Assembly: GCA_944390975.1 (NCBI GenBank) | Contig: CALXRX010000003.1 | Location: 25,115 to 89,114 of the forward strand | Source: an uncultured Clostridia bacterium | GTDB lineage: Bacteria; Bacillota; Clostridia; TANB77; CAG-508 | Reading direction: 5' to 3' | Length of the DNA stretch: 64,000 nucleotides | Part shown: one piece after another, positions 39,955 to 44,207 of the stretch | How the letters are laid out: the number at the start of each line of letters is the position of its first letter | Numbering within the stretch: the stretch's first letter is position 1 | Notes under the pieces: generated by a model | The model's input: the letters and a program-made list of their open reading frames with translations, nothing else | What the model was told of the DNA's origin: nothing | The model's database searches: none | Program-made: the position numbers and the translations under genes

Positions 39955-40122
39955 ATTGTGGTATCATCTAAAATAGCACAATTCTAAAACTGTATGATTA
40001 TATTTCAGATCATCTAATAAGTTTTATTACTATCTAAAATAACGCAATTCTAAAACGTTACATTTGCTCCATAAATATTTGTATTTGTTTTATTACTATC
40101 TAAAATAACACAATTCTAAAAC
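39955..40122 (-). CRISPR. Mini CRISPR array with three 36-nt repeats and two 30-nt spacers
   Basis: Repeats at 40087..40122 and 40021..40056 differ by 1 nt. A degenerate repeat lies at 39955..39990. In cas9 sense the repeat reads GTTTTAGAATTGCGTTATTTTAGATAGTAATAAAAC. Spacers are at 40057..40086 and 39991..40020. Confidence 0.85.
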
Positions 40123-43100
40123 GCCCATTTTACTTTATACCTTCTTTCGTACATACCTGTAACAGATTTGTCTACAAATATCATATTTAATAATTTTTCT
40201 GTTCTGAAATTTTGTCCGCTTTTTCTTCCCTCTCTTTCTGTCAATCCAATTTTCTTCAAATTTCCTTGTCCTGTTTCCATTAAATCTATTAATCCATTAA
40301 TTACTGCTGTCTTTTCTTGGTCACTTATTTCTTCAAATTTTGTATATTGATTCATTAGTTTTATATAAACTGCAGAAAATATTTTATATTCTTTATCTAA
40401 TTTGTCTAGCAAGTAATCAAAAACATATTTATACCCTTCTTCATTCAATTTTTCCTTTTGTTCATCTGTAATTTTATTTTCTTCTAAGTTCATGATATAT
40501 ACTAATTCAGAAACTTTTCTATTTACAATTAATTCTTTATTAGCTCTTATTTCAGAATCACTACATAGTCTCATTGGCTCATTTTTATCATCTATATATT
40601 CTTGATTCATTAAAATTTTATTTCTAATTATTTTGAAATCCTTATAAATTTTATCTTTTAACTCTGTATCCTTTATATAATTTTCTAATGTTTTCTTTCC
40701 CGCTTTTATTTCATATGATACTTGTATTGGAATACCTATTAATTGGTATTCTTTTTCATTTTTACTATTTATATACCCATATATAGCACAATATGCTTTT
40801 TGTTCTCCAGAATATCCACCATATTTTTGGGCATTTTTATCTTTCTTTAAAGCAATCAACTTGCTCTTGTTTGCTTTTGGACTATATAATGTTTGATCAT
40901 AGAAAGCTCCAGTTCCTTCTTCTAACATTCTGCTTATGTAGCAATCCTTGTATTCCATTACTTTTTTAACTTTATCTATATCTATTGATTTATTAAGCAT
41001 TCCCAATATAATGCCATTTTTTTCAAATTTGCTTTTTTCTTCTTTTAAATAACGTTTAACATATTCACTATATTTAAACTCTTCTGTTCCTCTCCATTCT
41101 TTTCTTATTGTATTTCCTATAAGATTTAAAATATAGGCATCTTGGGCATGGTGATAATTGTTAATATTTCTATTTTTATAAATTTCATATTTAACTCTAA
41201 AATTATGTGTTAACTCTCCTCTTATCGCATAAAAATCAGTATTTTCATATTCATTTTTCAACAAATTTGTTACATATTTTATTATTTGTCTTGTCTCTAC
41301 TAATTGTCTTTGTACAAATCGCTCTCTATCAGCATTTGTTTCAAACATTTTTCTTCTTATTAATTTATAATATTTAGTTTGACTAATTAATCCATTATCT
41401 AGTAAACTTTTCCACCATTCCATTCTTCCACTTATAATCTCATCTGATAATAATAAACTATCTTTCTTCCTTTGATTTTCTTGTTTTAACACTAAAGCTT
41501 TATTATCAATACTATCATCCTTTATGTAAGATTGTGGTAAAATATGGTCCACTTCATATTTGTTTAATTCATCAATATTTAATGGCATTCCAGAATACAA
41601 ACATTTTCCATTTTGAATATAATACAAATACATTTTTTCAGTTAGAGTTTTTTCATTCTGATTTTTCTTAAGTTCTAAATATACTTTATGGTCATAATTC
41701 TTTAATTCTTTTATTTGTTTTTCTATTTCTTCATATTTTTTCAGTAATTGCCTTTGTCTTGCATCTTTCATCTGTTTTTTTACATCTTCTGCCCTGGCAA
41801 ATTCAATATATACATTTTGTGGCTCATTTTTCATTACTTTTACAATTTCTTTTACTACGCATATTGACTGCCATATTGCTCTTTTATTGGCTGGTGATGT
41901 AGGAATTTCTGCAACATCGCTATATTCTATCTTTTTAGTTTTGTTTGGTAATAACTCCTCTATTTTTTTATTAAAGCCATATTCTTTGTTATTTATAATT
42001 TGCATAAAATTCAATGATGTTTTTTCTAATTTTTCCATTATACTTTCTTCATCATATGACTTTATTCCCGTTAATAATTTTTTAGATAAGCGTGACCAAC
42101 CAGTATATTTCAATTGTATTAGTTTTCTAATTTGTTCTTCTGAAATTTCTGGATATTCTTTTCTTATTTTTCTTTTTAGTATTTTCTTTTCTTCAAAAAT
42201 AGTAATCCAATAAATTAAATTTTCACATTTTTTATAATTATCTTCATCAACTTCTCCAAAAATTTTTATCATATCTATGTATGATGACATATTAGACATG
42301 AAATTTTCTCCATCTTGTAATCCTTCAATACTTTTTACTGTTCTTCCTTCTAGTTTATAAAAATCTATCAATGATTTTTTAGTTACTTTTTTCTTTTGTT
42401 TAAAAACATTGTCTATTATTGCTTTTTTTGTATTTTTTCCTATATGCTCTCCATCTACTCTTATATTATTTAACTCATTTAATACACAAAATTTAGAATA
42501 TAATAAAGACTGTTTTGGAATAACATTTTCATTTAATAAATATGTACATTTATTAGTCATCCTTTTTATGAATTCTTCTGCTGTAGCATCTTCATCCACC
42601 ACTTCTTCAAAATTCCATGGTCTTATTGGCTCATTACTTTTTCTAATTATCCATGACCATTTTCCATTTTCTTTTGATAGCGGACCAACATAATATGGTA
42701 TTCTAAAATAGAACAATTTTAATATATTTTCCTTGTTTTCTTTTAAAGTTGTATAGTATTTAGATTGATTTTCTAATATTTTTTCTAGTTCTTTTTGGTG
42801 TAACTGATGTGGTATTGCTCCATTTTCTGTTACATTTAACTTTCTTAAAAAGTTATTTTCTTCTAAATCTTTTTTTATTTTTTCCTTTTCAGTACAGTCA
42901 TCAGGTAATGTGTCTATTTTTTTCTTTAAATTTGTAAAAAAATCTTCTGGAGTACATTTTTTATATGTCTTTCCTGAACTTTTTCCTTCATATGCTACAT
43001 AGTTATTGTTATCAAATTTTCTAAACATATTTTTATAATCTTCGGAAAAATATTCTTTATATACTTTTTTTAGAATTTTTAAGTCTTTTGCATATTTTTC

Positions 43101-44048
43101 ATATTTTTCCATCATTGCTTCTGATATATATGTCTTTCCTTTCAAGATATCTTGTAAAATATACCAACTATAAATTTCATTCATTGCTTCATATATGCTT
43201 GCATTCTCTTGTAATACATTTTTTATTTCTTCTTCATTTTCTATTTCTGCAGAAAATGAAATCTTATTTTTTTCGAAATCACTTTCAAAAATTTTATTTA
43301 AATCGAATGAATAACCTAAAAACGAATTTATTATATTTACGATTATTGCTTTATCTGATTTTTCAAATTCAAAGCAAGCAATTAATTTGTCTTTTTTATC
43401 TACTTTTGTAATATTTTTTTCAGATAAAATTTTTAGTATTACTTCTTTTTCTTCTTTCAACTCTACATTATATGCTTGTTTTAAAAAATCTAAAATTAGT
43501 GTTAATTTTTCTTCTATTTCATTTACATTATTTGAAAAGTCTCCATCATATAAAAAATTTCCTCTATATTTTATTATATGGTGAATTGCTAAATAGACCA
43601 ATCTTATATCTACTTTTTCTTCTGCTTTTATTAAGTAATTTCTTAAATGATATATTGTTGGAAATTTTTTATAATAACTTTTATCTGTTATTTCTCCTTT
43701 TGAAAATAAATTATATTTTATTCCATCTATGATATTTGCTTGCATCTTATCTTCGAAATTTAGAGGACTTTCTTTTAATAATACAAAGAAATTTGGATAA
43801 TTATTTTCCATATCATCTTGTACCAAACTTTGTAATATTTTTATTCTTTCTTTTCTTCTATCAATTCTTCTTCTACTAGACCTATACTCTCTTGTTTCTT
43901 TAGCTGTTTTTGCTTCATTAAATATTCGTGATCCCCACATGTTTTTTCCATTTTTCTTAAGCATGTTCCCATTATCATCTGTTACACACCATCCTACTGA
44001 GCCTACTCCTATATCTAGTCCTATATTATAATTTTTTGTTTTAGACAT
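40116..44048 (-). CDS. cas9: Type II CRISPR-associated endonuclease Cas9 (1310 aa)
   Basis: RuvC-I IGLDIGVGSVGWCV, Arg-rich bridge helix RSSRRRIDRRKERI, RuvC-II IYIEFARA, HNH VDHILPQS...N, RuvC-III NNYHHAQDAYL. Confidence 0.95.
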   Translation of the reverse strand: MSKTKNYNIGLDIGVGSVGWCVTDDNGNMLKKNGKNMWGSRIFNEAKTAKETREYRSSRRRIDRRKERIKILQSLVQDDMENNYPNFFVLLKESPLNFEDKMQANIIDGIKYNLFSKGEITDKSYYKKFPTIYHLRNYLIKAEEKVDIRLVYLAIHHIIKYRGNFLYDGDFSNNVNEIEEKLTLILDFLKQAYNVELKEEKEVILKILSEKNITKVDKKDKLIACFEFEKSDKAIIVNIINSFLGYSFDLNKIFESDFEKNKISFSAEIENEEEIKNVLQENASIYEAMNEIYSWYILQDILKGKTYISEAMMEKYEKYAKDLKILKKVYKEYFSEDYKNMFRKFDNNNYVAYEGKSSGKTYKKCTPEDFFTNLKKKIDTLPDDCTEKEKIKKDLEENNFLRKLNVTENGAIPHQLHQKELEKILENQSKYYTTLKENKENILKLFYFRIPYYVGPLSKENGKWSWIIRKSNEPIRPWNFEEVVDEDATAEEFIKRMTNKCTYLLNENVIPKQSLLYSKFCVLNELNNIRVDGEHIGKNTKKAIIDNVFKQKKKVTKKSLIDFYKLEGRTVKSIEGLQDGENFMSNMSSYIDMIKIFGEVDEDNYKKCENLIYWITIFEEKKILKRKIRKEYPEISEEQIRKLIQLKYTGWSRLSKKLLTGIKSYDEESIMEKLEKTSLNFMQIINNKEYGFNKKIEELLPNKTKKIEYSDVAEIPTSPANKRAIWQSICVVKEIVKVMKNEPQNVYIEFARAEDVKKQMKDARQRQLLKKYEEIEKQIKELKNYDHKVYLELKKNQNEKTLTEKMYLYYIQNGKCLYSGMPLNIDELNKYEVDHILPQSYIKDDSIDNKALVLKQENQRKKDSLLLSDEIISGRMEWWKSLLDNGLISQTKYYKLIRRKMFETNADRERFVQRQLVETRQIIKYVTNLLKNEYENTDFYAIRGELTHNFRVKYEIYKNRNINNYHHAQDAYILNLIGNTIRKEWRGTEEFKYSEYVKRYLKEEKSKFEKNGIILGMLNKSIDIDKVKKVMEYKDCYISRMLEEGTGAFYDQTLYSPKANKSKLIALKKDKNAQKYGGYSGEQKAYCAIYGYINSKNEKEYQLIGIPIQVSYEIKAGKKTLENYIKDTELKDKIYKDFKIIRNKILMNQEYIDDKNEPMRLCSDSEIRANKELIVNRKVSELVYIMNLEENKITDEQKEKLNEEGYKYVFDYLLDKLDKEYKIFSAVYIKLMNQYTKFEEISDQEKTAVINGLIDLMETGQGNLKKIGLTEREGRKSGQNFRTEKLLNMIFVDKSVTGMYERRYKVKWAF

Positions 44049-44049
44049 A

Positions 44050-44078
44050 TTGACTTGTCCTCCTTTTTATGGTATAGT
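44050..44078 (+). promoter_or_regulatory. Promoter of the tracrRNA, divergent from and overlapping the cas9 5' end
   Basis: TTGACT (44050..44055), 17-nt spacer, TATAGT (44073..44078). Confidence 0.65.
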
Positions 44079-44084
44079 GAAACT

Positions 44085-44207
44085 GCTATTAATTACTATC
44101 TAAAATAGCACAATGAGTTAAAATAAGGTTTAACCTTTAATGCCAAAGTAATTTGGTTTCACTTAGGTGATTTTTAAAAGTTCTAATTTATTAGAACTTT
44201 TATTTTT
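44085..44207 (+). ncRNA. tracrRNA (the 3' end is either at the T-run 44171..44175 or after the second hairpin near 44207)
   Basis: Anti-repeat ATTACTATCTAAAATAGCACAAT (44092..44114) is complementary to the crRNA repeat. It is followed by GAGTTAAAATAAGG (compare S. pyogenes AAGTTAAAATAAGG), three stem-loops and T-runs. Confidence 0.8.

Follow-up and report, generated by a model that had tools for sequence, protein, structure and literature searches.

The locus considered here lies in a 64,000-nucleotide (nt) stretch of DNA from an uncultured human-gut Clostridia bacterium (assembly GCA_944390975.1, contig CALXRX010000003.1, positions 25,115 to 89,114), referred to below as the window. It consists of a cas9 gene, a divergent trans-activating CRISPR RNA (tracrRNA) and a short CRISPR array. 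A first-pass annotation, made from the letters alone, presented it as a minimal type II locus standing alone. What it says of the architecture and of an affinity to type II-A holds, but the minimal status does not, since the nearest relatives carry a full operon at the same site. In all likelihood the locus is a deletion derivative of type II-A, an interference-only remnant left by a deletion that was probably recent, in a state that is probably transient.

Cas9, tracrRNA and array

The cas9 open reading frame (ORF) occupies 40116-44048 on the minus strand and has 1310 codons, for a protein of 1310 amino acids (aa). The protein matches Pfam Cas9_REC (2.5e-160), Cas9_PI, HNH_4, Cas9_RuvC and Cas9-BH, scores 862 bits against TIGR01865 (cut-off 100), and has E. 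faecalis-type Cas9 and SpCas9 as its top PDB matches (E ~1e-172). The RuvC-like and HNH nuclease domains of a type II effector were recovered by Pfam, NCBIfam and PADLOC alike, and the nuclease motifs are unbroken: RuvC-I (IGLDIG), RuvC-II (IEFARAE), HNH (EVDHILPQS...DNKAL) and RuvC-III (HHAQDAY). There are no CGG codons in cas9, and only four among the 17,617 codons of the window, which is very AT-rich (G+C about 25%); three of the four lie within the final 30 codons of their ORFs, and the fourth in the tmcAL gene discussed below. The first-pass annotation had reported an intact 1310-aa cas9 free of CGG, and had named inactivated catalytic residues as a finding that would overturn its reading; the ORF and the codon count agree with it, and the catalytic motifs were all found intact.

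The tracrRNA is transcribed away from cas9, and its candidate promoter ends about 8 nt ahead of the anti-repeat (Table 1). Duplexes of the anti-repeat with repeats 1, 2 and 3 have predicted energies of -31.3, -27.4 and -25.8 kcal/mol, where shuffled repeats give -9.1 +/- 2.7, so that the locus has the tracrRNA complementary to its repeat that belongs to a type II system. Pairing of repeat and anti-repeat is a requirement for crRNA (CRISPR RNA) maturation in type II-A, and behind each of the spacers stands a repeat that pairs with the anti-repeat over its first 24 nt. The fold of nexus, two hairpins and terminator hairpin has a z-score of -2.9. The match to Rfam RF02348 covers the whole model at 28 bits, far below the threshold of 70 (E 0.22), and the identification therefore rests on repeat pairing and on conservation: the tracrRNA is kept in seven relatives, with differences that fall in loops or are compensatory.

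The array (39955-40122) comprises three 36-nt repeats and two 30-nt spacers with a period of 66 nt, and repeat 1 is identical to the repeat of the relatives' arrays, which run to 39 repeats. With a consensus first repeat, a second carrying one substitution and a degenerate third, what survives looks like a trailer end. Tandem Repeats Finder detected no further CRISPR-like array in the 64 kb. The hairpin that separates the array from the convergent tmcAL is probably a bidirectional terminator. The divergent tracrRNA, which pairs with all three repeats and is conserved in relatives, and the 3-repeat, 2-spacer array, including its coordinates and both spacer sequences, had been described correctly in the first-pass annotation; its layout of the array needs one correction, in that the first repeat overlaps the cas9 stop codon.

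Table 1. Features of the cas9 locus (coordinates are those of the window)
Feature	Coordinates	Strand	Remarks
tracrRNA	44087-44207	+	divergent from cas9; anti-repeat ~44091-44126, nexus AAGGUUUAACCUU, two hairpins, terminator hairpin followed by U run
candidate tracrRNA promoter	44050-44078	+	TTGACT, 17 nt, TG-extended TATAGT; consensus scan 10/12 with TG; pattern match only
final 30 nt of cas9, GTACGAAAGAAGGTATAAAGTAAAATGGGC	40123-40152	-	deletion junction 40123/40124; sits at spacer position
repeat 1	40087-40122	-	consensus; positions 5-7 (TAG) are the cas9 stop codon
spacer 1, AAATACAAATATTTATGGAGCAAATGTAAC	40057-40086	-	no credible target
repeat 2	40021-40056	-	one T>C substitution, which leaves a C.A mismatch against the anti-repeat
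spacer 2, TTATTAGATGATCTGAAATATAATCATACA	39991-40020	-	best outside match judged chance
terminal repeat 3	39955-39990	-	first 24 nt intact, 3' end degenerate
hairpin with flanking A and U runs	39877-39931	.	between array and convergent tmcAL; fold z = -2.8

Related loci and the deletion junction

Adaptation genes were not found in the 64 kb, as the first-pass annotation had also noted: tblastn with the Cas1, Cas2 and Csn2 of relatives gave a best E of 0.47, a six-frame search with profile hidden Markov models a best E of 0.068, and in a PADLOC run on 56 ORFs Cas9 was the sole Cas family among the 25 of 51 matched families listed. Both the cas1-cas2 pair and the csn2 gene of type II-A are thus missing from the window. 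By descent, its assignment to type II-A is clear, as the syntenic loci L006, L011 and L014 have a Cas9 of 85% identity, an identical repeat and a tracrRNA that is nearly so. The comparison set consisted of 20 related loci with readable downstream DNA, whose Cas9 proteins are 40-85% identical to that of the window. All 20, csn2 included, have the order cas9-cas1-cas2-csn2-leader-array, and the minimal state of the window is therefore derived by deletion.

The nearest Cas9 proteins (P0002-P0004, 84-85% identical) are encoded at the same chromosomal site, flanked by a cotJC 3' fragment and the tracrRNA on one side and by tmcAL and RNase H on the other; their loci carry cas9-cas1-cas2-csn2, a 58-nt leader and arrays of 1 to 37 spacers. 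Two blocks of synteny with L006 bracket the missing part: window 44225-40124 corresponds to L006 9824-13916 (86% nt identity), and window 39875-38127 to L006 17016-18764 (88%). Between them, L006 has 3.1 kb (cas1, cas2, csn2, the 58-nt leader and 16 repeats) where the window has 248 bp. Aligned in this way, the loci show a single deletion, which removed cas1, cas2 and csn2 together with the leader and, possibly, some of the array.

The junction can be placed to within a base. In the relatives the 3' end of cas9 overlaps the start of cas1 (...AAAATGGGATGGAGAACAG), where ATG GGA TGG encodes the M-G-W of Cas1. Homology of the window to all relatives ends at ...AAAATGGG, that is, at the ATGGG of cas1, in codon 2; the relatives continue with A-TGG-AGAACAG, and the window has a single base, C, followed by the repeat, GTTTTAGAATTG.... 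On this alignment the deletion begins at cas1 codon 2 and ends no more than one base away from a repeat's 5' end. It fused the cas9 frame to the repeat (TGG GCG TTT TAG), and for this reason a TAG of the repeat now ends cas9. The leader went with the genes. In nearly all relatives, even at 40% Cas9 identity, the leader ends in ATTTGAG directly before repeat 1; in the window that place is taken by cas9 coding sequence, ...AATGGGC. ATTTGAG is the leader motif of 'Group 1' type II-A systems and is required for adaptation (Van Orden et al. 2017, PMC5382924). With the integrase genes and the ATTTGAG leader-repeat junction both lost, the locus is predicted to be one that cannot acquire spacers.

The same structure has been assembled elsewhere. 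Two contigs from other samples, L001 and L002, encode exactly the same Cas9; over 10.8 kb their identity to the window is 99.97-99.99%, and they agree with it in junction, repeats and spacers. This allele is carried by samples ERZ28614877 and ERZ24773278. Because two independent metagenome assemblies agree on it, the junction is taken as real and misassembly as ruled out. The first-pass annotation would have given way to an adjacent adaptation module appearing on a corrected assembly, and both of these assemblies have the same junction in its place. A collapse across CRISPR repeats, as often happens to repeat arrays in metagenomes, would be expected to join repeat to repeat, but here unique cas9 sequence is joined to a repeat, and the other two assemblies were made from different samples by different assemblers; we regard an artefact as next to inconceivable.

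The fusion replaced the KWDGEQ(L) tail of the relatives' Cas9 with KWAF. The change is probably harmless, since the C-terminal tail is the most variable part of this Cas9 family. Another odd C-terminus, in P0111 ('...KLI'), proved to belong to a normal locus with cas1 38 nt downstream. The dN/dS (ratio of non-synonymous to synonymous substitution rates) of cas9 against an 85%-identical relative is 0.097, a pairwise value that denotes strong purifying selection. At otherwise conserved sites, Cas9 has 30 lineage-specific changes in the window and 21-65 in full-locus relatives. In relative-rate tests the counts of unique Cas9 changes were 83 v 58, 68 v 56 and 65 v 50, nominally significant in the first only, and any rate increase in the window Cas9 appears at most marginal. 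Relaxed selection on Cas9 was rejected as an interpretation, given a pairwise dN/dS of about 0.1 and relative-rate tests that were marginal at best. Rough three-point estimates of branch dN/dS are 0.15 against 0.06, with dS near saturation. As far as these comparisons reach, the rate tests neither date the deletion nor show decay.

Many homologues in the family were called without their first 35-130 residues (P0048, P0069, P0072, P0093, P0098, P0099, P0105 and others), so that the bridge helix or RuvC-I is missing from them. Loss of the cas9 5' end, by truncation or frameshift, may thus be common in these gut Clostridia, with some cases maybe due to contig edges.

Recombination between repeats is very frequent at this locus, as shown by the size of the array, which varies from 1 to 37 spacers among L011, L012 and L013, all encoding an identical Cas9 (P0003). 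Two ideas on the breakpoint were rejected. A pseudo-leader, in which the cas9/cas1 junction mimics a leader-repeat site and misdirects the integrase or homologous recombination, was dropped because the best-scoring mimics in the cas operon do not include this junction. A repeat-like microhomology inside cas1 (AGAA..TTGT) was dropped because the observed junction is upstream of it. In two relatives of 66% identity (L009 15822-19384 and L010 15822-20930) an insert of 1.8-3 kb with genes for LPD3/ART-PolyVal proteins interrupts the array; past it there are lone repeats, and one ORF ends within a repeat.

A second fusion without adaptation genes was found in GCA_947623925.1 (contig CANQID010000023.1, locus L047), whose Cas9 is 65% identical to that of the window and sits on a long branch of its own. 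Its cas9 runs into a repeat at ...AATGGGTT|GTTTTGAATT (with GTTTTGA after the junction), at cas1 codon 2-3. It has no adaptation genes, and no tracrRNA was seen within the contig stretch examined. The 13 repeats each carry different mutations, and cas9 has lost its first ~75 codons, including RuvC-I and the bridge helix. No retrieved homologue is more than ~70% identical to this Cas9, and the closest have the normal tails found where cas1 follows, which makes its deletion an independent one. After the relic, at 5040-5340, there are apparent tRNA genes, one apparently partial, and at 5617-9790 a type IV secretion cluster of a conjugative element (T4SS pilin, PrgI, TraG-like, TrbL), which suggests that the relic lies at a mobile-element integration site. 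The two fusions read as stages of the same decay, with L047 late and the window early, because in the window all else is intact and a single sequence variant is known.

Function, origin and fate of the locus

Relatives indicate what the system was for. Fourteen of their spacers match a group of ~15-kb phage contigs in IMG/VR, many perfectly, and the 3' flanks of these protospacers read TGG in ten cases, AGG in three and ATG in one, pointing to an NGG-like protospacer-adjacent motif (PAM). Judged by such spacers, which match phage contigs with NGG-like flanks, the family is demonstrably an active antiphage system. None of the 281 distinct spacers in these arrays, with the window's two included, matches a cas gene. 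One spacer of a lineage with a 75%-identical Cas9 (spacer 34 of L019) matches 24 of 27 bases in the window itself, at 19555-19581, inside an ORF at 19029-20147 on the minus strand; this could be chance or a shared mobile or conserved gene.

In the window, no decay is apparent in Cas9, in the tracrRNA or in the pairing of repeat and anti-repeat, and the locus can probably still cut DNA that matches its two old spacers. What is left would be the parts of an interference-only system: cas9, a tracrRNA that has a promoter and a terminator to itself, two spacers with usable repeats, and a terminator. With the leader gone and no terminator between cas9 and the array, the precursor crRNA is inferred to be a 3' extension of the cas9 mRNA. 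The tracrRNA would pair with it, host RNase III would cut at the repeat duplex just past the stop codon, and two crRNAs would be released, directing Cas9 to NGG-flanked matches to both spacers. A third crRNA might also form, its guide being the 3' end of cas9; this guide should be harmless in cis, since its own target copy is flanked by a repeat and not by a PAM. The likely end point is decay, as in L047.

Several points weigh against this account. The nearest full locus is a long Cas9 branch away (15% aa), and the Cas9 proteins of all four known contigs are identical, so that selection after the deletion is not measurable. Production of crRNA by read-through from cas9 is itself inferred, and promoter-like sites in the region occur at chance density (36, with 35.2 expected from shuffles). 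A search of the spacers, as the first-pass annotation had proposed, was run and found no credible target for either one, in the window (up to three mismatches), in IMG/VR (20-mers), in GenBank phages, in PLSDB plasmids or in JGI metagenomes; a match of 27/30 between spacer 2 and a marine carbamoyltransferase gene was rejected as chance. For old spacers, however, a lack of targets is uninformative.

The first-pass annotation had left three readings side by side, namely a frozen interference-only system, a Cas9 co-opted for regulation and a locus served in trans, and the first is the one that the evidence favours. A variant of it would have the interference-only state stably maintained and selected, with adaptation lost as costly and the crRNAs now expressed from the cas9 transcript or a new promoter. 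The intactness of Cas9, tracrRNA and repeats would fit, as would the presence of the same allele in at least three samples, and the window has a -10-like hexamer missing in relatives: at 40180-40208 on the minus strand, ~60 nt upstream of repeat 1, TATGAT stands 17 nt after TTCAGA where relatives read GATGGA. The hexamer was created by window-specific changes in Cas9, K1288N and E/T>I at the next-but-one codon. Speculatively, a crRNA promoter may have newly arisen here, or the hexamer may be due to chance, the DNA being AT-rich; the site stays a speculation, because promoter-like motifs are no denser than in shuffles. Moreover, with only one sequence variant known there is no sign of persistence through divergence, the sole older example of the architecture (L047) has decayed, and two spacers from the trailer end, neither with a match, would give selection little to act on. 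Stable maintenance is therefore considered rather unlikely. Supply of adaptation in trans, by cas1-cas2-csn2 encoded elsewhere in the genome, reportedly has a precedent in other CRISPR types (PMC8092290), but it is weakened by the deletion of the leader and its ATTTGAG junction motif (PMC5382924), and two II-A systems almost never share a genome, with none co-occurring in the genomes surveyed (PMC7145637). The array also holds just two spacers, and its second repeat is already mutated, so we think this reading improbable. Regulation of endogenous genes in the style of the Francisella scaRNA or of a long tracrRNA is, if anything, still more improbable. Nothing specific speaks for it beyond the retention of Cas9 and tracrRNA while adaptation was lost; neither spacer matches elsewhere in the 64 kb at up to three mismatches, the nuclease motifs are intact, and the relatives are clearly antiviral.

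How the deletion came about is a separate matter, and one proposal, that the CRISPR machinery itself inflicted it, is compatible with a deletion-derived remnant and would refine its origin. By one route, a self-acquired spacer from the cas9/cas1 junction would have recombined with its own protospacer after self-cleavage; by another, a PAM-adjacent chromosomal end would have been half-integrated at the repeat, in an aborted cis-integration. The scar has the anatomy of a spacer-repeat junction, in that a PAM-flanked cas9 end meets a right end at the repeat boundary. In every relative TGG lies directly past the breakpoint region (…ATGGGA|TGG…), and 13 of the 14 family protospacers have TGG or AGG on their 3' side, against a low background in the cas operon (TGG at ~1% and WGG at ~2% of positions). 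The other breakpoint is at most one base from the 5' end of a repeat, for which a random cut in a 66-nt unit has a ~3% chance; the independent L047 fusion breaks 1-2 nt from the same two positions; and recombination over the 36-nt repeats is plainly common, given that arrays with the same Cas9 hold anything from 1 to 37 spacers. Against this, neither junction is exact (the window has C for the relatives' A, and L047 one extra T), and L047 was found through its similar Cas9 tail, so that the coincidence is partly one of ascertainment. In addition, 0 of 281 distinct spacers match a cas gene, no precedent was found in a review of self-targeting (PMC6990116), and the argument was formed post hoc, with the data already seen. 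It is thus only tentatively suggested that CRISPR machinery caused the loss of the module, at least twice independently in this Cas9 family, with the last 30 nt of cas9 as a 'spacer 0'. If so, the 'spacer 0' crRNA would target the cas9/cas1 junction and TGG of intact alleles, and module loss would be self-reinforcing against repair through recombination or gene transfer. Should the anatomy of the breakpoints (PAM-adjacent on the left, at the repeat boundary on the right, and recurrent) be borne out more widely, it would point to self-inflicted loss of adaptation modules, which, if true, bears on why CRISPR loci are so often partial.

Neighbouring genes and comparison with known systems

The neighbours named in the first-pass annotation, tmcAL and cotJC, are both present, with qualifications: cotJC is there as a 3' fragment only, being split by a 5.5-kb element, and tmcAL lies in two frames. 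The tmcAL gene (HIGH_NTase1; 38613-39882, plus strand) changes frame at ~39360-39390, and the same layout is found in an 88%-identical species (L006 17012-18245). The region of the shift reads AGG TCT CGG AAA AGT AGT TGC TAG. Right behind a stop codon the downstream frame opens with G-L-G-K-V-V; 8 codons further on, the upstream frame comes to its stop. The 22 codons ahead of the first ATG have 7 synonymous and 3 non-synonymous changes between the species, and fill Pfam positions 238-261, which are missing from both ORFs. This makes tmcAL a candidate for a conserved +1 frameshift at an A4 run beside the very rare CGG codon.

The cotJC fragments are at 44329-44811 and 50315-50548, and the 5.5-kb insert (~44812-50314) lies between ...DIGTEE and LAHLEMVGT.... 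It encodes a GNAT protein, a 417-aa unknown, RhuM, DUF6512 and a large serine recombinase in three frames (46841-48402), and its ends are imperfect inverted repeats (ATGTTGTCA). In L006 a different, larger element with two intact recombinases occupies the same cotJC site; the recombinase of the window's element looks dead. A skin-like intervening element has been reported in cotJC of Laceyella (bioRxiv 10.1101/2022.02.25.481979), and the insert resembles such intervening elements of sporulation genes.

As a contribution to annotation, the present analysis corrects what would have been a new minimal variant; as far as can be read from the DNA, a new minimal type II system is not supported, and the locus would be a partly deleted type II-A locus, ordinary in kind. 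Its value is as a clean natural example of a II-A locus starting to die, in which one event removes the adaptation genes and the leader and leaves interference intact. Together with its intact relatives and the L047 relic, it lets an early and a late stage of decay be seen in a single Cas9 family. The family itself (NGG-like PAM, ~1310 aa, human-gut Clostridia) is an incremental addition to the known orthologs.

Among described systems, the best fit is to Group 1 type II-A, of which Streptococcus thermophilus CRISPR1 is an example (PMC5382924). Shared features are a long II-A Cas9, a 36-nt GTTTTAGA...AAAAC repeat, 30-nt spacers and a divergent upstream tracrRNA, and the nearest relatives, though not the window, add cas1-cas2-csn2 (with a 226-aa Csn2) and the ATTTGAG|GTTTT leader-repeat junction. 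The window copy differs in having no cas1, cas2, csn2 or leader, and in the fusion of its array to the cas9 ORF. Type II-C systems (cas9-cas1-cas2, no csn2 or cas4 and usually a shorter Cas9) are unlike it, since it has no cas1 or cas2, a long II-A Cas9 and relatives that bear csn2. It also differs from II-D, in that its Cas9 scores only 60 bits against the model for the compact Cas9d (NCBIfam NF049971, cut-off 375). SpCas9 and Enterococcus faecalis Cas9 (PDB 4OO8, 9VJ8) resemble it in domain order, catalytic residues and the NGG-like PAM attributed to its family, but they are distant from it, and by eye no alignment of the PAM-interacting region can be made; the putative PAM-contact segment is QNFRT in the window and QKFKT in the 85% relative.

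Loss of parts of a locus has been noted before. Partial or degraded loci, and escape from self-targeting via deletion of cas genes, were reportedly treated by Stern et al. in 2010. Partial CRISPR-Cas loci are well known (PMC8730458), and deletion of cas genes is recognised as a way to escape autoimmunity (Wimmer and Beisel 2020, PMC6990116). Like the partial loci covered in that review, the window has lost part of its cas operon and kept its array; unlike them, it has lost the adaptation module with effector and tracrRNA surviving. With L047 it shares the absence of adaptation genes and a cas9 tail independently joined, at cas1 codon 2-3, to a repeat, but where cas9 of L047 is truncated and its repeats have diverged, the window retains a full-length cas9 and its tracrRNA.

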